From contig DAOULB010000006.1 in assembly GCA_034420695.1 (NCBI GenBank), positions 2,615-66,614 of the forward strand: a stretch of 64,000 nucleotides of DNA. Reading direction: 5' to 3'. Positions within the stretch are counted from its first letter, which is position 1. Every line of letters begins with the position of its first letter. A program made the position numbers and the translations under genes. The notes below the pieces were generated by a model. That model was not told the DNA's origin. It did not search any database and saw nothing but the letters and a program-made list of their open reading frames with translations. The stretch comes from Dehalococcoidia bacterium (lineage in GTDB: Bacteria; Chloroflexota; Dehalococcoidia; Lucifugimonadales; UBA3495). Positions 4,294 through 45,838 of the stretch are shown one piece after another.

Positions 4294-4857
4294 ATAGCTA
4301 GGCAGTATCGGGTAAACGAGCGGATTAACTCTCCCCAAGTTCGAGTTATTGGCGAAAATGGAGAGCAGCTTGGCGTAATGACGGTCGCTGATGCTCTTCG
4401 CGCCGCGAGAGCCGCCGACGTGGACCTGGTAGAGGTGGCGCCGAACTCCGACCCTCCGGTGTGCCGCCTGCTTGACTATGGAAAGCTTCGGTACCTCTCT
4501 TCCAAGAAGGATAGGGAGTCCAAGAAAGGGCAGAAGAGCACGGAACTGCGGGAGGTCCGCTTCAGGCCTAACATAGGGGCCCACGACTTGGACGCCAAGA
4601 CTCGCAAGGTTAAGGAACTGATTGAGGACGGCGCCAAGGTTAAGCTGACCGTACGGTTCCGCGGCCGTGAAGCCACCCACCAGCAGATAGGGTTGTCGGT
4701 GCTCAAGCGGGTTGCCGACGACCTGAAGGAAATTGTGCGTTTGGAGAAGCCTCCAGCAATGGAAGGAAGGGCCCTTTCCATGATTCTGATCCCCAGCGGG
4801 CAGAAGGTGGAACGGACCGATAAACAGGTAGAAGAACTGACCGATGCCAAAGCTTAA
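4294..4857 (+). CDS. infC: translation initiation factor IF-3, non-AUG (ATA) start
   Basis: Track ORF 4378..4857 begins mid-protein. The same frame is open upstream and encodes (I)ARQYRVNERINSPQVRVIGENGEQLGV, the conserved IF-3 N-domain. GGAGGTG at 4280-4286 lies 7 nt before ATA 4294. The exact start is inferred. Confidence 0.85.
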   Translation: MARQYRVNERINSPQVRVIGENGEQLGVMTVADALRAARAADVDLVEVAPNSDPPVCRLLDYGKLRYLSSKKDRESKKGQKSTELREVRFRPNIGAHDLDAKTRKVKELIEDGAKVKLTVRFRGREATHQQIGLSVLKRVADDLKEIVRLEKPPAMEGRALSMILIPSGQKVERTDKQVEELTDAKA

Positions 4858-14082: not shown

Positions 14083-14236
14083 CGGAGCGACAACGGCAAC
14101 CGGGAATAGCCGCCGGAGTTGGTGGTGGTCATCACTACAGGAATGGAACTGCCCCAGCGCCGCAACTACTACGCGGGCTGGGATTCGCAAACGGAAAAAG
14201 CGTGGTGGGCCGAGCAGGCGACTAAAGGAAGCCCCT

Positions 14237-15955
14237 TCACGCGCCCAGCAGGCGCTGCACTTCCTTGGCCGCATCGGCAATCGGCGCCAGCGCGGCCTCG
14301 GCTTCCCGGCGGGCCTTGATTTCAACGGCGCCCTGACGCAGGTTCCGGGGGCTCATCACCAACCGTACAGGTATACCCAGCAGGTCGGCATCGTTCAGTT
14401 TGACGCCGGCGGTCTGGTCGGGGCGGTCGTCGTATAGGGTCTCAATCCCCTGGTCCCACAGCCCGGTATACAGTGCTTCAGCGGCTTGGGCAACCTCCGG
14501 TTGCGCCAAGTTCAGCCCCACCAAGTGAGCTTGGTAGGGGGCGATGGGCGCGGGGAAAACGATGCCCCTCTCGTCGTTGTTCTGCTCCACGGCCGCCGCC
14601 AGCAGCCTGCCGATGCCGATGCCATAGCACCCCATGATGATGGGCTGCTGCCGCCCTTCCTGGTCCAGGAAGTTGGCGCCCAGGGCTTCGCTGAAGAAGG
14701 TGCCCAGCTTGAAGATGTGACCCACCTCTATGCCCCGGGTGGACTCCAGCCCTTGGCCGCAGTTGGGGCAGAGCCCGCCGGGCTGGGCCAAAGCGATGTC
14801 GGCCATGACGTCCACCTGGAAGTCCCTGGGATAGTTGGCCCCCAGCAGGTGGGTATCCGGCTTGTTGGCCCCGACGACGAAGTTGGCCCCCTTGGTCACC
14901 GAGTTGTCCGCCACTCTCTGCATGTTGGTGATGCCAATTCCCGAGGCCGAGCCCGCCACCAAGCCGGCGGCGGCTACTTCCTCTTCGCTGGCAAACCGGA
15001 GTTCGTTCACGTGGAGAGTGTTCTTGAGCTTGACTTCGTTGACTTCCAAGTCTCCCCGGATGGTCACAAAGGTCATTTCGCCGTCGGCCATATAGAAGAC
15101 GGCCTTCAGGGTCTTCTCCGGTGGCACGTTCAGGAAATCGCACAGGTCGGCGATGGTCTTGAGCCCTGGAGTGCTGACTTCCTCGAGGGACTTTTCGTCC
15201 TCGGCGGGAACATCCGGGATCCGGGCCTCGGCCTTTTCCGAATTGGCGGTGTAGCCGCACCCGGGGCAGTGGATGACCGTGTCCTCCCCTGCGCTGGTGG
15301 GAAGCAGGAATTCGTGGGAGTCCTTGCCGCCGATGGCCCCGCTGTCGGCTTCGGCCATCAGGACGGGAAGGCCGCAGCGGCGGTAGATGTTGCGGTAGGC
15401 TTGGGCCATGGCTTGGTAGGTGCGGTCCAAAGACTCCTCATCACTGTCAAAGCTGTAGGCGTCCTTCATTGTGAATTCCCGCACCCGGATGAGCCCGGCC
15501 CGCGGCCTGGGCTCGTCGCGGAATTTGGTCTGGAACTGGTACAGGATTACGGGCAGGTCGCGGTAGCTCTGGACGTTGGCCCTAACGATGTTGGTAACCA
15601 CCTCTTCGTGGGTGGGGGCCAGCACCATGGGGCGGCCCCGGCGGTCCTGCAGCGAGAAAAGGTTCTCGCCGAAGGCGGCGGCGCGGCCGGTCTCGTCCCA
15701 CAGTTCCCGGGGATGCAGCGCCGGCATGGAGATTTCCTGCCCCCCGGCGGCGTCTATCTCTTCCCGGACGATGTTCTCTATCTTGCGCAGGGAGCGCCAA
15801 GCCAAGGGCAGCGAGGCATAGACCCCGGCGGCCACTTGGTGGATGAAGCCTGCCCGGAGCATCAGCCGGTGGCTGACGGCTTCGCTTTCTGCCTCACCTT
15901 CGGCGCCGGTCAAACCCTCCCTTAGGGTCCGGGTGGCGAGCTTGGTGAACTTCAT
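14237..15955 (-). CDS. proS: proline--tRNA ligase (bacterial type with INS domain)
   Basis: 572 aa with FRDEPRPRAGLIRVREFTMKDAYSF and HIFKLGTFFSE class II motifs. Confidence 0.95.
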   Translation of the reverse strand: MKFTKLATRTLREGLTGAEGEAESEAVSHRLMLRAGFIHQVAAGVYASLPLAWRSLRKIENIVREEIDAAGGQEISMPALHPRELWDETGRAAAFGENLFSLQDRRGRPMVLAPTHEEVVTNIVRANVQSYRDLPVILYQFQTKFRDEPRPRAGLIRVREFTMKDAYSFDSDEESLDRTYQAMAQAYRNIYRRCGLPVLMAEADSGAIGGKDSHEFLLPTSAGEDTVIHCPGCGYTANSEKAEARIPDVPAEDEKSLEEVSTPGLKTIADLCDFLNVPPEKTLKAVFYMADGEMTFVTIRGDLEVNEVKLKNTLHVNELRFASEEEVAAAGLVAGSASGIGITNMQRVADNSVTKGANFVVGANKPDTHLLGANYPRDFQVDVMADIALAQPGGLCPNCGQGLESTRGIEVGHIFKLGTFFSEALGANFLDQEGRQQPIIMGCYGIGIGRLLAAAVEQNNDERGIVFPAPIAPYQAHLVGLNLAQPEVAQAAEALYTGLWDQGIETLYDDRPDQTAGVKLNDADLLGIPVRLVMSPRNLRQGAVEIKARREAEAALAPIADAAKEVQRLLGA

Positions 15956-17085
15956 GCTACGGGAGTATTCTCCACCTCTTCCATCAGGGCCGGAAGCATC
16001 TCCTCCGCGGTTACCACCCGCACCTTTTCCCCTTTGCGGAATATCACCGCCCGGCCGGCTCCGGCGGCAATGCCAACGTCGGCGTCCTTGGCTTCCCCGG
16101 GGCCGTTGACCTCGCAGCCCATCACCGCCACCGACACCTCCTTGTCGTTCTTCTTCAGGAGGGCGTCCACTTGGTTGGCCAGCTTAACCACGTCCACGTC
16201 GGCCCTGCCGCAACTGGGGCAGGCCACCAGGATGGCCCCCTTGCGGCGCAGGTTCAGGGACTTGAGAATTTCGTAACCGGCGGCCACTTCGTCCAGCGAG
16301 TCGCCGCTGAGAGACACCCGGATGGTATCGCCAATGCCTTGGTACAGCAGCAGGGACAAGCCCACCGCGGTGCGAATCGAACCCGCCTGGAGGGTGCCCG
16401 CCTCGGTGATTCCCAAGTGCAGTGGGTAGGGGACCATTTCCGCCAAGCGGGAATAGGCATCTACGGTGGTGGGAACGTCGAAGGCTTTCATGGAAATCTT
16501 GATCTGGTCGAAGTCCTGGGCTTCCAGGAGGCTAATCTCCCAGAGGGCGGTGGCCACCATGTGGTCCACGACGCTGTAGTCGCCTTCCCCGGCCTCCCCG
16601 GCCTTCGGCAGCTTATTCACCAAGTCCATGTGCCGGGAGAAGCCCCGGGTGCGTCCAATGCCGCCCACGGGAGGGAGGCTGCCGAAATTCACGCCTATTC
16701 GTATCGGTATGTTCCTTTCCTTGGCGGCGGCCACAACCTGCTTGACCTGCTCCTCATCCCGCAGGTTGCCGGGGTTCAAGCGCAGGCAGTCCACTCCGCC
16801 TTTGGCGCACTCCAAGGCCAGTTGGTAGTGGAAGTGGATGTCTGCTACCAAAGGAATGCGAATCTGCTTCTTGATTTCGCCCATCGCCTTGGCGGCTTCC
16901 ATGTCGGGGACCGCACTGCGGATGATTTCGCAGCCGGCGTCTTCCAGTTCGTGTATCTGCCGGACTGTGGCTGCTACGTCCCGGGTGTCGGTCTTGGTCA
17001 TGGACTGCACCGTGATGTCGGCGCCGCCGCCTACCTTGACGTCACCCACGTACACCGGCTTGGTGGGCCTACGTTTGATGGTCAC
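15952..17085 (-). CDS. ispG: 4-hydroxy-3-methylbut-2-en-1-yl diphosphate synthase
   Basis: VTIKRRPTKPVYVGDVKVGG...VQSMTKTDT...CPSCGR. I place the start at GTG 17085, preceded by GAGAGGTG. The longer track ORF to 17322 would overlap rseP. Confidence 0.9.
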   Translation of the reverse strand: MTIKRRPTKPVYVGDVKVGGGADITVQSMTKTDTRDVAATVRQIHELEDAGCEIIRSAVPDMEAAKAMGEIKKQIRIPLVADIHFHYQLALECAKGGVDCLRLNPGNLRDEEQVKQVVAAAKERNIPIRIGVNFGSLPPVGGIGRTRGFSRHMDLVNKLPKAGEAGEGDYSVVDHMVATALWEISLLEAQDFDQIKISMKAFDVPTTVDAYSRLAEMVPYPLHLGITEAGTLQAGSIRTAVGLSLLLYQGIGDTIRVSLSGDSLDEVAAGYEILKSLNLRRKGAILVACPSCGRADVDVVKLANQVDALLKKNDKEVSVAVMGCEVNGPGEAKDADVGIAAGAGRAVIFRKGEKVRVVTAEEMLPALMEEVENTPVA

Positions 17086-36248: not shown

Positions 36249-36325
36249 TGGTGGGCGGTAGTGGACTCGAACCACTGACCTCTTGCGTGTCGAGCAAGTA
36301 CTCTAACCAACTGAGCTAACCGCCC
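36249..36325 (-). tRNA. tRNA-Val (anticodon GAC), CCA encoded
   Basis: The minus strand folds by hand into a 77-nt cloverleaf: acceptor GGGCGGT/ACCGCCC, D arm GCTC..GAGT, anticodon stem CTTGC/GCAAG with loop TCGACAC, T arm AGTGG-TTCGAGT-CCACT, then A-CCA. Confidence 0.9.
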
Positions 36326-38217: not shown

Positions 38218-38889
38218 GTGGACCTGAAACGTCTATGTGAAGCCATATCAGAACCTAGGATCGAACCGTATCGACAAGAGCCTAGTGCCAGCGATTCACT
38301 GGCATGCGGAATATACGCATGGAACATTGCAGTATGCGAGAGTCTCTATCCAGCATTAAACTGTCTGGAGATTGTACTGCGGAACAGCATCCATCAGTCC
38401 GCTTTGTCCGCTATTGGGGATGAATTCTGGTTTGATGGCCTCTCGTTGAAGAAGTCCAGAGATTCCGTAAACCGGGCGCGGAAGGATTTGGAAGCAGTGC
38501 ACTCGGAGATGCAGATATCGGCGGGGGATATAGTGGCGAGGCTCAGTTTTGGGTTCTGGGCCGGATTGTTCGATAGCCAATATGAGCAAGAGCTTTGGCC
38601 AATGTTGATTAGGCCTGTATTTCCCAATCTTCCCCGAAAAACTCGCACACGGAGTCTCTTGGCAGGACGCCTCCATAATATCCGGTTGCTGAGGAATCGG
38701 ATATTCCATCATGAACCCATATGGAATAGAGATAATCTTGACAAGCAGCACGGGCAGATTCTGGACACAATTGGCTGGGTTAGCTCAGACATGAGAGACT
38801 TTGTCCAGATTCTAGACCGTTTCCCGCAAACGTATGCCAGAGGAGCTAAGGAATACGAACGTAATCTCCTCGGAAGCATTCAGACCTAA
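38218..38889 (+). CDS. Abi_2 (AbiD/AbiF-like) abortive-infection family protein, HEPN-type RNase motif
   Basis: ISEPRIEPY, IYAWNIAV...LEIVLRNSIH, LSFGFWAGLF and NIRLLRNRIFHHEPIW (Rx4H). It is AT-richer than its neighbours (one 60-nt line counted at 43% GC). GTG start with no obvious SD. Confidence 0.7.
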   Translation: MDLKRLCEAISEPRIEPYRQEPSASDSLACGIYAWNIAVCESLYPALNCLEIVLRNSIHQSALSAIGDEFWFDGLSLKKSRDSVNRARKDLEAVHSEMQISAGDIVARLSFGFWAGLFDSQYEQELWPMLIRPVFPNLPRKTRTRSLLAGRLHNIRLLRNRIFHHEPIWNRDNLDKQHGQILDTIGWVSSDMRDFVQILDRFPQTYARGAKEYERNLLGSIQT

Positions 38890-38923: not shown

Positions 38924-40876
38924 ATGGTTGAGAACTCGGGAGCATTGGAAGCTCTGCTTCATGAAGACCGGACTTTCCCCCCTAGCGACGATTTTCGCGC
39001 CAACGCCAACATCTCAGACCCCGACATCTACCGCAGGGCGCTGGAAGACCCCGAGGGGTTCTGGGCCGGTTTCGCCGGGGAGTTGGAGTGGTTCGAAAAG
39101 TGGGACCAGGTCCTCGACTGGAAGCCGCCCTTCGCCCAATGGTTCCTGGGCGGTAAGACCAACGTGTCCTACAATTGCATCGACCGTCACCTCAAGGCCG
39201 GCCGCCGCAACAAGGCCGCCCTCATCTGGGAAGGCGAACCCGGCGATTGGAAAGTCTACACCTATTGGGACCTGTACCGCGAGGTGTGCCGCTTTGCCAA
39301 CGGGCTGAAGAGCCTTGGGGTGGAGAAGGGCGACCGGATCACAATTTACCTTCCCATGGTCCCCGAGCTTCCCATTGCCATGCTGGCTTGTGCCCGCATC
39401 GGCGCCCCCCATAGCGTCATATTCGGCGGGTTCAGTCCCGAGTCTATCCGCGACCGCATCAACGATTCCCAGTCCAAGTTGATAATTACCGCCGACGGGG
39501 GATTCCGGCGGGGCGGTATCGTTCCCCTGAAACAGAATGCCGACGAATCCCTCGACGGTTCGCCCAGCATTGAAAAAATGGTGGTGGTGCGCCGCACCGG
39601 CCAGGCCGACGAGCGCATGGTGGAAGGCCGCGACGTCTGGTGGCACGACTTGGTGGAGGGCCAAGCCCAGACCTGCCCGCCGGAGCCCATGGATAGCGAG
39701 GACATGCTCTATGTCCTCTACACCAGCGGCACCACCGGCAAACCCAAGGGAATAGTACACACCACCGGCGGTTACATGGTGGGCACTTATGCCACCGCCA
39801 AGTGGATTTTCGACCTCAAGGACGACGATGTTTACTGGTGCACTGCCGACATAGGCTGGGTTACCGGGCATAGCTACATCGTCTATGGCCCCTTGGCCAA
39901 CGGCGCAACTTCGGTGATGTACGAGGGCTCCCCCGACTATCCCGACCGGGACCGCTTCTGGGCCATCGTAGCCAAGTACGGAGTGACCATCTGCTACACT
40001 GCTCCCACGGCCATCCGCACCTTCATGCGGTGGGGTGAGGAATATCCCCAGCGGCACGACATGTCCACCCTGCGGCTGCTGGGGTCGGTGGGAGAACCCA
40101 TCAATCCCGAGGCGTGGGTCTGGTACTGGCAACACATTGGCGGCGGGCGGTGCCCGGTGGTCGACACTTGGTGGCAGACCGAGACCGGCCAGATTCTCAT
40201 TGCTCCGCTGCCCGGCATCACCACCCTGAAGCCGGGCTCGGCCACCCACCCCTTCCCCGGCATCCACGCCGAGGTGGTGGATGAAGCCGGCAACGCGGTG
40301 GGGCCCGGAGGTGGCGGCTATCTAACCATCAAGAAGCCCTGGCCGGGTATGCTTCGTACTATCTACGGGGACCCCGACCGCTACGTGGAACAGTACTGGT
40401 CCCGCTACCAGGACACCTACTTCACTGCCGACGGCGCCAAGCTGGACGAGGACGGCTACTTCTGGCTTCTGGGAAGGGTGGACGACGTCATCAACGTTTC
40501 GGCCCACCGCATCAGCACTATGGAAGTAGAAAGCGCCTTGGTGGACAATTCCAAGGTCGCCGAGGCCGCTTGCATCGGCAAAGCCCACGAGGTCAAGGGC
40601 CAGGCCATCGTCGGCTTCGTAACCCTGAAGGACCAAATTGAGGCCTCCGATGCCGTCATCACTGAGCTGAAGCAGCACGTGGCCACCAAGATAGGCCCCA
40701 TGGCCCGGCCCGACGACATTTATTTCGCCGCCGAACTGCCTAAGACCCGCAGCGGCAAGATAATGCGCCGGCTGCTCCGGGACGTAGCCGAGGGCCGCGC
40801 CTTGGGCGACACCACCACCCTGGCCGACCCGGCGGTCGTTGAAGCCCTGAAGAGCCAGTACGACGACGAGGAATAG
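38924..40876 (+). CDS. acs: acetyl-CoA synthetase (AMP-forming)
   Basis: 650 aa with [49 protein letters not shown]. Confidence 0.95.
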
Positions 40877-40882
40877 GGCTTA

Positions 40883-42619
40883 GTGGAGGCTATCGACAGG
40901 ACGTTCAAGCAAATAATAGATACAAGCATCCAATACGTCGTTCCTGTCTTTCAACGGGACTACAAATGGGACAAGGAGCAGTGGCAGCGGCTTTGGGATG
41001 ACGTTAATCGGGTGAGCGTCAAAAATGGTACCGCTGGGCACTTCCTCGGTTCGCTCGTCCAAATTGATACTGGCCGGACCACGCCCTCTCTCAGTAGTTG
41101 GCTAGTGGTCGACGGTCAACAGCGACTGGCTACGTTGACGATACTGGTGGCAGCACTAAGGGACCATTTGGAGGATACTGGTTGGCCCGAGGATGAAGAT
41201 GGTCCAACTAAAGAATCCTTGGAGGACATGTTCCTCAAAAACCGGAATGCCAGCGGTGATAGAAAGTACAAATTGAGTCTCAGACGGGCCGATAACGCTA
41301 CCCTGCATGAAATCATTGACTACAGGCCCTCAAACACGGTAGAAGGCAACCCGTCTGGTCAGATAAAGAGCTGTTACACGTTTTTCAGGGAACGACTAAA
41401 TGCCCCGGGTTGTGACCCTTTAGCACTTTACAATAGTGTAGCATCCCTACGGATTGTGGAAGTTACCTTGAAACGGGAAGTTGATGACCCTCAGTTCGTC
41501 TTCGAAAGCATGAATCACACTGGGGTTGACCTCTCACAAGCCGATCTAATCCGCAATTACCTTTTGATGAACCTTGAAGAGCAGGAACAGACAAGACTTT
41601 ATTCAGACTACTGGAGAGTAACGGAACAATACTTCAGAGAACCGAATGGGGCGCTAAACGATGAGATGTTTGACACGTTCCTGCAAGATTACCTGGCTTT
41701 GAAATTGAACAGAAATCAACGGGAACCACGACGTCAAATTTATGACGAATTCAAGCTGGGTAGGGAGAGATTGCAGGGCGGGAGAACCCTTGAGGAGTTG
41801 CTCGAAGAGATTAGACGTTTTGCCGGATATTATTCGGCTTTTAATGGTCGTAATGCTGCGCACACAGAGCAATTGGCCGATGCGATGAGAAACGTGCGAA
41901 GACGCGGTACCACCCCGGCAGTTCTCGTCTTGCGATTGTACGATTGCTTTGACCGAGAAAAAAGCCTTCATGAAGTGGAATTTGTCAGAGCATTGGACCT
42001 TGTCCAGAGTTACCTCATCCGTCGGACGGTGATGGGATATCAAACCAGATGGGGCAGCTATTATGGAATCTTTAGTGGAATGGCCCGAGACATTCACAAT
42101 ATGGTGGACCCGACCCCCATGGAAACCGTAGAACGGGTCCTGATGAGCTGGGAAGAGTGGTACTGGCACTGGCGTTTCCCACGGGACGGTGAATTCATCC
42201 AAGAGTTGCAAAAGCGCGACCTGTATTCCCTCGGCGGAGTGTGCAAACACCTGCTCGACCGGCTGGAAAACTACGACACCAAGGAACCGTCACCAGTTTC
42301 TGAATACACAATTGAACACATAATGCCGCAGAGTCCCGGACCGGAGTGGCAGGAGATGATCGGAGAGGGTTGGGAACAGGTCCATGCTGACTGGCTCCAT
42401 CGACTGGGGAATCTGACCCTCACGGGATACAATTCAGAGATGTCCAATCGTTCCTTCGAGGAGAAGAAAGCCATCAAAGGCGGATTCAACGAATCCGCCG
42501 TGCGACTCAACAAGTTCGTGCTGGAACATCCGAAGTGGACAGCAACTGAGATGGAAGAACGGGGCCGGCAGTTGGCTGATCAGGCGCTGAAAATCTGGCC
42601 CTATCCCCAGCCAAGCTAG
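40883..42619 (+). CDS. GmrSD-like DUF262 + DUF1524 protein (candidate type IV modification-dependent restriction enzyme)
   Basis: The N-terminus has PVFQRDYKW and VVDGQQRLATL (DUF262/ParB-like). The C-terminus has TIEHIMPQ...WLHRLGNLTLTGYNSEMSN (DUF1524 His-Me finger). One 60-nt line counted at 48% GC. GTG start 6 nt after the acs stop. Confidence 0.8.
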   Translation: MEAIDRTFKQIIDTSIQYVVPVFQRDYKWDKEQWQRLWDDVNRVSVKNGTAGHFLGSLVQIDTGRTTPSLSSWLVVDGQQRLATLTILVAALRDHLEDTGWPEDEDGPTKESLEDMFLKNRNASGDRKYKLSLRRADNATLHEIIDYRPSNTVEGNPSGQIKSCYTFFRERLNAPGCDPLALYNSVASLRIVEVTLKREVDDPQFVFESMNHTGVDLSQADLIRNYLLMNLEEQEQTRLYSDYWRVTEQYFREPNGALNDEMFDTFLQDYLALKLNRNQREPRRQIYDEFKLGRERLQGGRTLEELLEEIRRFAGYYSAFNGRNAAHTEQLADAMRNVRRRGTTPAVLVLRLYDCFDREKSLHEVEFVRALDLVQSYLIRRTVMGYQTRWGSYYGIFSGMARDIHNMVDPTPMETVERVLMSWEEWYWHWRFPRDGEFIQELQKRDLYSLGGVCKHLLDRLENYDTKEPSPVSEYTIEHIMPQSPGPEWQEMIGEGWEQVHADWLHRLGNLTLTGYNSEMSNRSFEEKKAIKGGFNESAVRLNKFVLEHPKWTATEMEERGRQLADQALKIWPYPQPS

Positions 42620-42702
42620 ACGCAAGCGGCTAGATGCGCACGGCGGTGCGTGCTTGCCCGAAACAAGAACACGGACAAACGGATTTAGCGGAGATTTCAT
42701 CA

Positions 42703-43110
42703 ATGGCAACAGTACCCGCTCCCGACCGGGAGGCCGCAGGGAATCACCTCTTGCATTGCCGCCAATACATGGACAATGCACTAGACGCCCTGCGGAATCA
42801 AGAGCCTGCCAAGGCCGGGGAAATGCTTTGGGGCAGCGTAAGTCAAGCCGTCCATGCCGTGGACGCTTGGCGGGGGCCCATGATTGAGTCGCATCGAGAC
42901 TTGTTAAACTTCGCCTACGCCCTCGGCCGGGAAATCGGAGACCCGGCTTTCACCTACGTTTTCCGGGCTGCAAGGAGCCTCCACAACAACTTCTACGTCC
43001 CGGTGGAAACTATGGAAGAAGTTGAAGGGTTACTGCCGGGCATACAAACGGTGGTCAACCAGATTCTGGCCCTCTTGCCCGAGGAGGCGCGCAGCGGAAC
43101 CACCATGTAG
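42703..43110 (+). CDS. small helical HEPN/PaREP1-like protein with Rx5H motif
   Basis: ...AGEMLWGSVSQAVHAVDAWRG...SHRDLLNFAYALGREIGDP...FRAARSLHNNFY. The alternative upstream start at 42634 is in the track. Family assignment is from memory. Confidence 0.55.
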   Translation: MATVPAPDREAAGNHLLHCRQYMDNALDALRNQEPAKAGEMLWGSVSQAVHAVDAWRGPMIESHRDLLNFAYALGREIGDPAFTYVFRAARSLHNNFYVPVETMEEVEGLLPGIQTVVNQILALLPEEARSGTTM

Positions 43111-43212
43111 TAGGCTGGGTCAGTTCCTAGTTGATTGCGGAGTGAAAATCTGTGCGCAGCCGCTTGGCTTGGGCGGCCGGTCAAATGGCTAGTCTTGAAG
43201 GAGTCTTAGAGA

Positions 43213-45231
43213 ATGGCAAACTACACCAAGGACGAAGCGCAAGAATGGGCATGGGAGAGTCTGAAAGGCCAGTGGACTACCCTGATTACTCCCTTTACGC
43301 CCGACAACAAGTACGACAGGGAAGGGATGAAGCGCAACATCCGCCACATTCGCAGCCTGGGCACTGCCGGCGCCGGCTGCACTTGGGGAATGGGCGAGTT
43401 CTGGAGCCTGACCCATGACGAACGCATCGACGTGATGGACTCGGTAGCTGAAGAGGCGGCGGGCAGTTGGCCCATCGGCGCCCACGTCACCCACTCTTCG
43501 GCGCCGGAAATGCTATCCCTTGCCCGGCATGCCGAGGACCGGGGGTTCGACCTGCTCATCGTGGCTCCGCCCTTCATGGTGACCAAGACCGAGGACCAAG
43601 TTGTCGAGTATGTCCGCCTGCTGGCGGAAAACACCAACCTGGCGATCATGTTCTACAACTCGCCCCAATTCGGCATCGTAATGAGCACCCACGGGCTGGA
43701 GAGGCTCTGCCGGATTCCCAACGTGGTTGGCGTAAAAGAGGCTAGCTTCAACCAGCAAATTTCAATCGAAGCCCACCTGACCCTGGGCAAAGAATTCGTC
43801 ATCAGCACCCCAGACGAGTGGATATTCTTCAAGGCTCAAGAACTGGGATTCCAGCAGCAGGTGATGTTTTCCAATACTTCCGACTGGCGGTTCGACATCC
43901 CGGGGGCCAATTACTACGTTCAGTTTATTGACCGGGCTACCAAGGGTGACTTGGACGAGGCTTTCTACGACAAGCATATTCGCAGGTTGAATGAACTGTC
44001 CGACACTTGGTGGACCAGGACCATGGACAAGTACAACGGGGCCCTTCCGGTCTCCATGGTCAAGCATTGGGCCCAGCTCATGGGCCTGGCCGCCGGCCCG
44101 CCCCGCCTGCCCCTCATCGACCTCACCCCCCAAGAAAAATCCCAACTGCGGGAGGAACTGGAGCCGCTCAAGCCCCAAGTTCCAGCTCCTGCCGTGGCGG
44201 CCCAACCCCGGGCGGCCTGGCTGGACGGCAACAATAACTTCGCCACCGGCATGCTGCTTATGGTCAGCGTGCAAGACGTCGAAGAAGCATTGGAGGCCGA
44301 GCAGGGCGGCGCCGACGTGGTTGACGTGAAGAACCTGCAGGAAGCCCTGGTTGGCTCAGGGCATCCCTCCATTGTCAGGCAGGTCCGGGGCATCATCCCG
44401 GTAGAGAAGCACGTCAGCGTCACCTTGGGCGTGGTGCCCAACCAGCCCGGCACGGTGGCCATGGCCGTGTACGCCGCGGCGCACATGGATGCCACCTCGG
44501 TGAAGGTGGGTTTCCAGCGGGGCGACTACGACTCCGCCGTGGAGGTGCTGCGGGAGGCGCGCCGAGCCCTGGAGGGGTTCAACACCAAGCTCATCGGCTC
44601 GGTTTTTGCCGACAACGAGCTGTACGAGGACGGCCTCGACCCCCACTGCATGGTTCAACTGGCCAAAGACGGTGAATGTGACGGCTTCCTGATCGACACC
44701 TTGACCAAGGATGGAAGGAACCTGTTCGATTTCATGCCCGAGCACGTATTGCGGAACATTGTTCTGCAGGGCAAGGAGCTGGGCATGAGCACGGCGCTCT
44801 CCGGCCACCTGAAGATAAGCGACTTGGATGAACTCGCCCGCATCAACCCCGACATAGTTGGAGTCCGGGGCGCCGTGTGTTCCAACGGGGACCGGGGCCG
44901 GGCGGTGGCTTGGGAGGCGGTGTCCGAGTTCAAACGGCAGCTTGACCTGCGCAAAAGCGGGGCAATCAGCGTCCACGGCGACGCCGCTCCCGTTGTCAGC
45001 AACGCCGACAGCGGCTGGGTCATCATCGACGGGCGAGGCAAGAGCTGCGCCGGCGTCATCGCTGCCATGGCCTACCAGATGGAGCACGACCGGCAGTCCT
45101 TCGTCGAAGCCATTCTCGCCGACGCCCTGAATATCTACGACGTAATAGTCTGGACGGAAAAAGCGGGGCACCAGCTGTTGACCCAGCGCCACGACTCCGA
45201 CGGCTCGGTCCGGGTGCTCATCAAGCCCTGA
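43213..45231 (+). CDS. three-domain fusion: DapA/DHDPS-family class I aldolase + MfnB(DUF556)-like aldolase + TusA-like domain
   Basis: aa 1-~320: LITPFT, MFYNSP and VVGVKEAS (Schiff-base Lys175). aa ~320-346: a Pro/Ala linker. aa 347-~580: MLLMVSVQDVEEALEAEQGGADVVDVKN, SVKVGF, LIDTLTKDGRNLFD and DIVGVRGAVCSNGDR, close to M. jannaschii MfnB as I remember it. aa ~602-672: IIDGRGKSCAGV...VIVWTEKAGHQLL...VRVLIKP (TusA fold, with CPxP replaced by CAGV). SD is GAAGGAG. Confidence 0.75.
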   Translation: MANYTKDEAQEWAWESLKGQWTTLITPFTPDNKYDREGMKRNIRHIRSLGTAGAGCTWGMGEFWSLTHDERIDVMDSVAEEAAGSWPIGAHVTHSSAPEMLSLARHAEDRGFDLLIVAPPFMVTKTEDQVVEYVRLLAENTNLAIMFYNSPQFGIVMSTHGLERLCRIPNVVGVKEASFNQQISIEAHLTLGKEFVISTPDEWIFFKAQELGFQQQVMFSNTSDWRFDIPGANYYVQFIDRATKGDLDEAFYDKHIRRLNELSDTWWTRTMDKYNGALPVSMVKHWAQLMGLAAGPPRLPLIDLTPQEKSQLREELEPLKPQVPAPAVAAQPRAAWLDGNNNFATGMLLMVSVQDVEEALEAEQGGADVVDVKNLQEALVGSGHPSIVRQVRGIIPVEKHVSVTLGVVPNQPGTVAMAVYAAAHMDATSVKVGFQRGDYDSAVEVLREARRALEGFNTKLIGSVFADNELYEDGLDPHCMVQLAKDGECDGFLIDTLTKDGRNLFDFMPEHVLRNIVLQGKELGMSTALSGHLKISDLDELARINPDIVGVRGAVCSNGDRGRAVAWEAVSEFKRQLDLRKSGAISVHGDAAPVVSNADSGWVIIDGRGKSCAGVIAAMAYQMEHDRQSFVEAILADALNIYDVIVWTEKAGHQLLTQRHDSDGSVRVLIKP

Positions 45232-45283: not shown

Positions 45284-45838
45284 ATGATCACCCCAAAACC
45301 GAAAACCAAGCTCACCTTCCAGGACTACCTTAAGACGTCCGACGATGAACGCTACGAACTCCTGGATGGCGAGTTGATTATGCTGCTCAGCCCAAACGAG
45401 GCCCACCAAATTACCTGCCTCAACCTCGGTTCCAGACTTTTGCTCTATGTCGAATAAAACGGCTTGGGCCAGGTCCTACTGGCCCCCTACGACGTGAAAC
45501 TGTCAGACACCGATGTGGTGCAGCCGGACATCCTCTTTGTATCCAACGAGAGGTCAGGAGTCAGGACCACCGACAACATCCAGGGCGCACCGGACTTGGT
45601 GGTGGAGATTCAGTCTCCTTCAACCGCCCGCCGCGACTGGAACGACAAACTCCGCCTCTATGCCCGGCGCGGGGTGAGTGAATACTGGATAATCAACCCG
45701 GAAGCCCACACGGTTGCCGTTCTTCTGCTGGAGGAAGGTGAATTTCGGCCCGCGGGGATCTATGGCGAAGGAAGCGCACTATCTTGCGCTTCAATAGAAG
45801 GCTTCAGCATCGAGGTGGACGAGATTTTCCCGTCATAG
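45284..45838 (+). pseudogene. Uma2-family (DUF820) endonuclease gene with one in-frame TAA
   Basis: ATG 45284 is followed by 57 codons (MITPKPKTKLTFQDYLKTSDDERYELLDGELIM...LLLYVE). TAA lies at 45455-45457, in the same frame as track ORF 45464..45838 (...QPDILFV...APDLVVEIQSPST...YARRGVSEYWIINP). Confidence 0.75.

Follow-up and report, generated by a model that had tools for sequence, protein, structure and literature searches.

What does a protein do that carries, in a single chain, two class I aldolase-type barrels followed by a sulfur-carrier-like domain? The question is raised by one gene in a 64-kb stretch of DNA (here called the window) from a Dehalococcoidia bacterium. The gene occupies window positions 43213 to 45231 on the + strand (stop codon included), encodes 672 amino acids (aa), and has full-length homologues, with which it shares its start methionine in the alignment. 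A preliminary description, made from the letters of the window, had reported one unbroken frame with its own Shine-Dalgarno sequence, and both the list of open reading frames (ORFs) and the sequence itself, which reads GAAGGAG at 43197 to 43203 (+ strand, 9 nucleotides [nt] before the ATG), agree with it. On the same strand, the layout comprises a class I aldolase-type domain of the DHDPS/NAL superfamily (aa 1 to 318; 43213 to 44166), supported by PF00701, DapA structures, and a subfamily tree; a Pro/Ala-rich linker (aa 319 to 346; 44167 to 44250), visible in the homologue alignment; an MfnB-like (4HFCP_synth) class I aldolase barrel (aa 347 to 580; 44251 to 44952), supported by PF04476, PDB entry 4rc1, and its clade; a short variable connector (aa 581 to 600; 44953 to 45012), evident from the alignment and from the low predicted local distance difference test (pLDDT) score of the N-terminal tail in a model of the C-terminal domain; and a TusA/SirA-fold domain (aa 601 to 672; 45013 to 45228), assigned by profile, AlphaFold2 (AF2), and Foldseek. 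All residues singled out in the preliminary description were found where it had placed them, and all are invariant across an alignment of 15 diverse homologues. This ORF is one real gene, in which three proteins of a single enzyme system are naturally fused.

This architecture, which the preliminary description had treated as an oddity of one genome, proved to be widespread in SAR202, where it is present in at least 80 species-representative genomes. Searching 5.8 billion proteins yielded 504 related clusters; the top 120 of these are full length (671 to 740 aa), contain both Pfam domains, and show 75 to 100% identity. Similarly, a scan of one genome per species yielded 388 stretches encoding a relative; in the best 80 of these, on which all counts for fused loci are based, the match covers residues 1 to 672 at 71 to 91% identity, and the hosts are nearly all Dehalococcoidia, SAR202, or Chloroflexota metagenome-assembled genomes, with several closed chromosomes. 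One fusion-bearing contig (L049; JADFOJ010000064.1; 77% identity) carries the label Planctomycetota and is probably mis-binned, all others being Chloroflexota/Dehalococcoidia. Because the full-length form collapses to a single representative in an exhaustive 50%-identity library, the fusion is confined to one lineage. An origin of the single ORF in a chimeric assembly, or in a missed stop or frameshift, is effectively refuted: we found no point in its favor, the identical, collinear architecture recurs in more than 100 protein clusters and at least 80 independent genomes, among which are several closed chromosomes, and conserved sequence flanks the variable linkers at both junctions of the alignment. 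The linker between the DHDPS-like and MfnB-like domains is the sole part that varies in length, some homologues having up to about 80 aa inserted there. With a median identity of 79%, the fusion protein is conserved much like the acetyl-CoA synthetase (Acs) of the same loci (81%), and SAM decarboxylase, spermidine synthase (67%), and aspartokinase (69%) lie below it, at 66 to 69%; all three parts are shown to be under strong purifying selection.

The exhaustive search also returned standalone halves at 61 to 63% identity, one consisting of the N-terminal domain alone (P0123) and the other of the MfnB-like and TusA-like parts together (P0124), and proteins of the latter type are common in pelagic SAR202. 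In this two-gene form, a DHDPS-like gene encoding 322 to 331 aa lies 3 to 45 nt upstream of the MfnB-TusA gene, on the same strand, in every locus examined. In a tree of the DHDPS-like subfamily, the fused and split SAR202 sequences form one clade, next to a sister clade that is probably archaeal, since its genes have Nep1/EMG1, ThermoDBP-RP_arch, a YGR210-type GTPase, and an archaeal pilin as neighbors; there, the MfnB-like, TusA-like, and DHDPS-like proteins are encoded by three neighboring genes. Among 80 metagenome loci (peat, soil, and hot springs) mapped by tblastn, 58 show an MfnB-like and a TusA-like gene no more than about 450 nt away from the DHDPS-like one; the genes are collinear, as MfnB, TusA, DHDPS, in 48 loci and convergent in 9. 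Restricted to the 43 loci in which both flanks extend for at least 1.2 kb, the count is 34 with the trio, 8 with a UbiA gene in its place, and 1 with neither. The MfnB-like part is invariably fused or adjacent to the TusA-like part, and no second copy of the module lies within about 10 kb in any locus examined. Because the MfnB-like and TusA-like parts always occur together, and because the trio is found adjacent as one, two, or three genes, we consider the three parts to be one functional unit and read the window gene as a Rosetta-stone fusion, the most condensed form of a conserved three-part enzyme system.

The N-terminal domain belongs to the DHDPS/NAL superfamily, as it matches PF00701 (DHDPS) over aa 18 to 317 with an E value of 5e-34 and 117.8 bits (gathering score, 22.1). 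With the other members of that superfamily (DapA, NanA, KdgD, KDG aldolases, and L-KDA dehydratase), it shares the common fold, the G-x-G-E motif region, the Schiff-base lysine K175 (nt 43735 to 43737), and Tyr148, the latter two aligned to DapA Lys161 and Tyr133 (Escherichia coli numbering); TPF is found at aa 26 to 28 and FYNSP at aa 147 to 151. It differs from them, however, in having its own subfamily motifs (WGMGEFWSLT, FYNSPQFG, and KEASFN), its own position in the tree, and changes at the equivalents of two DapA residues, Thr44, a member of the catalytic triad, and Arg138, the residue that binds aspartate semialdehyde. The former is replaced (GTTGE is aligned with WGMGE, at G59/M60), and the latter is F153, which is invariant in the homologues. 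The domain remains below every NCBIfam cut-off, including that of the DapA equivalog model TIGR00674 (82.6 versus 206.15 bits) and those of the KdgD models NF002958 (102.5 versus 278) and TIGR03249 (82.5 versus 374), the KdgD subfamily providing its best NCBIfam match at 102.5 bits; moreover, it is about equally far from all solved members of the superfamily, the best profile E value (2.5e-25) being to a DapA. Of the earlier label "DapA family," the superfamily, TPF, FYNSP, and Lys175 therefore stand, whereas the identity with DapA does not: the Thr44 and Arg138 equivalents are lost, TIGR00674 is failed, and the domain classifies as a DHDPS/NAL superfamily member other than DapA.

For the central domain, the reported collinearity of aa 347 to 580 with MfnB was borne out, with PF04476 (4HFCP_synth) matching aa 349 to 573 (E value, 1.5e-54; 185.6 bits; gathering score, 22.4) and PDB entry 4rc1 (MJ1099/MfnB) aligning from end to end (E value, 2.7e-42). 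Both lysines, K373 (nt 44329 to 44331) and K431 (nt 44503 to 44505), are kept and invariant, LIDTLTKDG lies at aa 493 to 501, and DIVGVRGAVCSNGDR lies at aa 547 to 561. More generally, the invariant residues D371, K373, K431, D495, K499, R561, and C556 correspond to D25, K27, K85, D151, K155, R217, and C212 of MJ1099. Asp25, Lys27, Lys85, and Asp151 were reportedly identified as catalytic in MJ1099 by Wang and coworkers in 2015; K155 and R217 are named in a further paper (PMC11365854). The module's barrel is thus of the same TIM-barrel family as MfnB, with all known catalytic residues kept, but unlike MfnB it is always coupled to TusA-like and DHDPS-like partners and has no methanofuran gene context. 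It scores well below the MfnB equivalog models (NF002573, 187.6 versus 341; NF002575, 179.5 versus 304), and the MfnB-like parts of the fused, split, and three-gene forms make up one long-branch clade apart from MJ1099 and 63 other MfnB-like representatives. Four substitutions relative to MJ1099, P29L, D61V, Y122F, and A186S (L375, V407, F465, and S530 in the window protein), run throughout this clade; the original residues are 92 to 97% conserved elsewhere, and the module-clade residues occur in only 0 to 6% of the 63 other representatives. Since near-invariant positions are replaced in a separate subfamily, synthesis of 4-(hydroxymethyl)-2-furancarboxaldehyde phosphate (4-HFC-P), the MfnB product, cannot be assumed, even though the catalytic core is present.

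The C-terminal domain had been described as following the TusA/SirA pattern, with the reactive cysteine kept and CPxP reading CAGV, and this description holds. Of the three domains that profile hidden Markov models had been expected to recover, the first two were found by PF00701 and PF04476, but the window domain stays below the cut-off of PF01206 (TusA) in Pfam (15.7 versus 28.6 bits; E value, 0.013), and it is a profile and a model that back the fold. The standalone orthologues in loci L090 and L092 do carry a recorded PF01206 match, and a profile of the domain together with its standalone orthologues matches the SirA/TusA-like protein Ta1170 (1PAV) with an E value of 3e-4, Cys upon Cys. 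An AF2 model of the domain (pLDDT, 88.5) was superposed with Foldseek on SirA-like 3hz7 (template modelling [TM] scores, 0.74/0.81; root mean square deviation, 1.4 Å), on E. coli TusA (3lvj_C; TM scores, 0.70/0.74), and on YeeD (8k1r_B). A TusA/SirA two-layer alpha/beta fold is hence supported for the modelled domain. The AF2 model of the full-length protein, built from a shallow alignment, is unusable for the arrangement of the active sites (mean pLDDT, 52; predicted TM score, 0.36). Like TusA, SirA, and YeeD (PF01206; 3lvj, 3hz7, 1pav, and 8k1r), the domain has a cysteine at the start of helix 1, namely, Cys612 (nt 45046 to 45048) in SCAGV, within the motif DG-x-G-K-S-C-A-G-V, and this cysteine is invariant in fused, split, and standalone forms even though identity falls to 19 to 32%. 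Unlike them, it lacks CPxP, which is replaced by C-A-G-V in the window protein and by C-[AKTS]-G-[VIA] across the clade, and its partner is an aldolase rather than a sulfur-relay or transport protein.

Genomic context adds clues to function, which differ between the lineages. In SAR202, the module occurs in three unrelated neighborhoods, two with the split pair and the third being that of the fused lineage. The first split-pair neighborhood contains aconitase, RecG, FakA, a prephenate dehydratase-family gene, and Trk genes; in the second (L175/L176, 2506 to 11982), the pair follows, after 94 nt, carB of a same-strand pyr operon (a phosphoribosyltransferase gene, pyrB, pyrC, carA, and carB). 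Fused genes have acs upstream, on the same strand in 63 of the 80 loci (218 nt upstream in the close relative L002), and speD and speE downstream. Because the neighbors differ between the lineages, the SAR202 context gives no pathway. As for the late futalosine/menaquinone enzymes (MqnL/UbiD, MqnP or MenA/UbiA, and UbiX), the window protein contains none of them, and their link to the module is by association only, as neighbors in L090, in eight metagenome loci, in L093, and loosely in split SAR202 loci. In L090, genes for HxlR, MfnB, TusA, DHDPS, UbiD, and UbiA run in one direction with short gaps, and UbiX is encoded 2.7 kb upstream. The HxlR-family regulator (4387 to 4812) stands directly upstream of the MfnB-TusA-DHDPS-UbiD-UbiA operon in this one lineage only; its family includes aldehyde- and quinone-sensing thiol switches. 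The UbiA gene in the 8 of 43 loci mentioned above, which represent three sublineages, is MenA-like and divergent, at 57 to 77 nt from the DHDPS-like gene, and L093 is alike. In five archaeal loci with a MenA-like UbiA gene (among them L146, L109, and L100), a DUF72 gene lies just downstream of the DHDPS-like gene and an MFS transporter gene upstream. In split SAR202 loci, starting 7.4 to 8.2 kb downstream, an MqnL equivalog (538 bits versus a cut-off of 496), the only one of these neighbors to pass an equivalog cut-off, is followed by a UbiA-family gene. In L083 to L088 (approximately 14200 to 16900), these two genes are preceded by those for a TM_HPP protein and a 379-aa protein, the latter with weak CTP_transf_like and CinA matches only and no NCBIfam match. 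In 11 of 41 archaeal loci, an MbcS/ACS-like ligase gene follows downstream on the same strand. Finally, in two three-gene loci from peat (L133, 12103 to 15911; L115, 11550 to 16508), genes for an aldehyde dehydrogenase and for opine-oxidase/HcnABC-like flavoproteins (Fer2_4, Pyr_redox_2, BFD, and DAO) are found downstream; they resemble clusters for the catabolism of hydroxyproline or 2-keto-3-deoxy acids, which also use DHDPS-family enzymes. Taken as functional clues, the associations with UbiA/UbiD/UbiX and with acyl-CoA synthetases are suggestive.

How might the three parts work together? Each keeps its reactive residue or residues (Lys175; Lys373 and Lys431; Cys612), and we propose, at a probability of roughly 45%, that the module is self-contained and biosynthetic and may turn triose phosphates and a 2-oxo acid into a heterocyclic or aromatic precursor that possibly contains sulfur. 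The MfnB-like barrel, with its two lysines and the set Asp371/Asp495/Lys499/Arg561, would condense triose phosphates to a reactive C6 carbonyl compound or heterocyclic phosphate that might be related, though probably not identical, to 4-HFC-P. Cys612 of the TusA-like domain could then deliver sulfane sulfur to this C6 intermediate or hold it covalently, and Lys175 of the DHDPS-like barrel could attach a 2-oxo-acid unit of the pyruvate type (or take one off). The product would be a small building block of a housekeeping cofactor, heterocyclic or aromatic and possibly with sulfur in it. Two trioses and pyruvate would amount to nine carbons, a number that would suit a prenyl acceptor in the form of a substituted furan or thiophene 2-oxo acid or of a bicyclic derivative; in the archaeal relatives, a MenA/MqnP-like prenyltransferase and a UbiD/UbiX decarboxylase would probably act on the product next, yielding a quinone-like head group. 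A furan-type or sulfur-containing heterocyclic product, as suggested in the preliminary description, would be consistent with all results. Quite unlikely, by our estimate, is the most far-reaching version of this proposal, in which the trio would be an unrecognized, self-contained synthase of a furan/thiophene-type (possibly bicyclic) aromatic precursor made from two triose phosphates, pyruvate, and protein-bound sulfur, then prenylated by a MenA/MqnP-like enzyme and processed by UbiD/UbiX, so that SAR202 and some archaea would possess a new route to quinone-like head groups.

Several points weigh against the biosynthetic proposal. Its chemistry is deduced from family membership alone, and the TusA-like domain, having no CPxP, might carry no sulfur at all. 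The eight UbiA-adjacent loci have no MfnB or TusA gene within 8 kb by tblastn mapping; in split SAR202 loci, the link to UbiA/UbiD is loose, with opposite-strand Trk genes in between; and in the 80 loci of the fused lineage, no UbiA or UbiD gene was found within 10 kb. Many of the archaeal loci are related to one another, so that their counts represent nonindependent events. Across the SAR202 lineages, with Acs and speDE in one, RecG and the prephenate dehydratase-family gene in another, and the pyr operon in the third, the only constant partners are the three parts themselves. Additionally, genes for an acyl-CoA synthetase and an MFS transporter are found repeatedly near the module in both clades, which would also fit a catabolic role.

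Such a role, in catabolism or salvage, was weighed in its own right. In that case, a 2-keto-3-deoxy (sulfo)sugar acid or a 2-oxo acid derived from an amino acid would be the substrate that the DHDPS-like part cleaves or dehydrates, the triose-phosphate or sulfur-bearing fragment would go on to the MfnB-like and TusA-like parts for processing, and a released acid would be dealt with by the neighboring acyl-CoA synthetase and MFS transporter. That the best NCBIfam match of the N-terminal domain is the KdgD subfamily speaks for this, as do the catabolic-looking clusters in which more distant members of the DHDPS subfamily sit, the same-strand, acetate-type acyl-CoA synthetase genes of 63/80 fused and 11/41 archaeal loci, the recurrent MFS transporters, and the aldehyde dehydrogenase and opine-oxidase-like genes of the two peat loci. 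A peripheral catabolic enzyme, however, would be unusual in having no second copy within about 10 kb, in being present across SAR202, and in being conserved at the level of Acs, and the three SAR202 lineages show unrelated housekeeping neighbors without a regulator or a consistent transporter. Since inserted genes part acs from the fusion gene in the window, Acs is also not needed in cis, and on balance we hold catabolism to be unlikely. We think it equally improbable that the aldolases cooperate as proposed above while the TusA-like domain is a structural, oligomerization, or regulatory appendage, with no sulfur in the product. The missing CPxP, the subthreshold Pfam score, and the absence of a cysteine desulfurase or other sulfur-relay gene from every neighborhood examined would agree with an appendage, but the cysteine, aligned with the active cysteine of TusA-family proteins, is invariant in all forms despite 19 to 32% identity.

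Very unlikely, in our view, is a true 4-HFC-P synthase serving methanofuran or methylofuran synthesis, to which the other two domains would be accessory. The 185-bit match to PF04476 and the full set of MJ1099 catalytic residues would allow it, and the NCBI pipeline even names some split orthologues "(5-formylfuran-3-yl)methyl phosphate synthase," but the failed equivalog cut-offs, the long-branch clade, and the replacement of 92 to 97% conserved residues all point the other way. To our knowledge, moreover, neither a DHDPS-like nor a TusA-like partner is used anywhere in the known methanofuran pathway. The preliminary description had noted no methanofuran or tetrahydromethanopterin (H4MPT) gene nearby, and this is true of the window and of every related locus examined: no mfn, fhc, or H4MPT gene was found within 6 to 10 kb in the neighborhoods of any lineage, unlike the situation in methylotrophs, where mfnB clusters with mfnE, mfnF, and fhc (PMC8141765). 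Likewise, we found no paper linking SAR202 to methanofuran.

Other pathways were considered and set aside. Thiamine-pyrimidine (HMP) synthesis came into view through the reported absence of thiC from SAR202 genomes (PMC12236431) and the split pair that follows the pyr operon, and synthesis of pyridoxal phosphate and the early steps of the shikimate pathway were taken up for chemical reasons alone; no result spoke for any of the three. A missing menaquinone pathway in Thaumarchaeota was dropped, as futalosine genes have been reported for that group. Rfam scans of the window and nine related loci for riboswitches gave tRNAs only, and no riboswitch upstream of the module genes (the one Rfam match in the whole window is a tRNA gene at 36252 to 36325 on the - strand), and a scan for promoters and terminators yielded nothing informative.

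The surroundings of the gene in the window differ from the usual arrangement. The acetyl-CoA synthetase gene (38924 to 40876, + strand; TIGR02188, 985 bits versus a cut-off of 725) is separated from the fusion gene by inserted genes, the interval from 40883 to 43110 containing a GmrSD-type restriction gene (GmrSD_N plus GmrSD_C, 578 aa) and a PaREP1-family gene (158 aa). Because PaREP1-like ORFs recur in this gap, being present in 33 of 80 related loci, it looks like an insertion hot spot. Just upstream of acs, a 223-aa ORF (38218 to 38889) has a weak match to Abi_2, below the cut-off (E value, 3.6e-4), and keeps its position in 27 related loci. Downstream of the fusion, a Uma2-family gene (45284 to 45838) appears to be frameshifted: a typical N terminus (MITPKPKTKLTFQDYL...) begins at 45284, and the 124-aa Uma2 ORF at 45464 to 45838 matches only profile positions 53 to 171 of the Uma2 model. 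The defence-type neighbors pointed out previously are indeed present, but they are strain-specific, irrelevant insertions; the conserved upstream neighbor of the fusion is acetyl-CoA synthetase.

We found no description in the literature of the three-domain architecture or of the module (searches covered MfnB fusions, UPF0264/DUF556, SAR202 with quinones, methanofuran, or TusA, and caldariellaquinone genes), nor any described pathway that accommodates the fusion protein, in line with the earlier remark that it could not be placed in one. It had also been allowed that the architecture might be common and already functionally annotated; it is common, but its annotations are names only ("hypothetical," "DHDPS family," "UPF0264/TusA-related," or "MfnB"). 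The component families are known; the novelty lies in their conserved combination, in the distinctness of two of the subfamilies, and in the fusion. The enzyme system probably serves neither methanofuran nor lysine synthesis.

In the dark ocean, SAR202 ranks with the most abundant groups of bacteria. A gene that is found across this group and is conserved like acetyl-CoA synthetase has been labelled "hypothetical," "DHDPS family," or, misleadingly, "MfnB," and at the least, the present analysis corrects automatic annotations that would wrongly suggest lysine or methanofuran biosynthesis. The fusion, together with the two-gene and three-gene forms, defines a three-component enzyme system outside the described pathways, suggests that MfnB-type chemistry extends beyond the setting of methanogens and methylotrophs, and offers concrete residues for experiment (K175, K373, K431, and C612). 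Should the links to UbiA, UbiD, and UbiX prove true, study of the system could uncover a new way of making the head groups of respiratory or other prenylated cofactors. According to a 2026 survey, whose supplements contain no Dehalococcoidia or SAR202 rows, many Chloroflexota have no recognizable quinone pathway, and more quinone types may exist (PMC13386864); a route to a quinone-like head group, if confirmed, could fill that gap.

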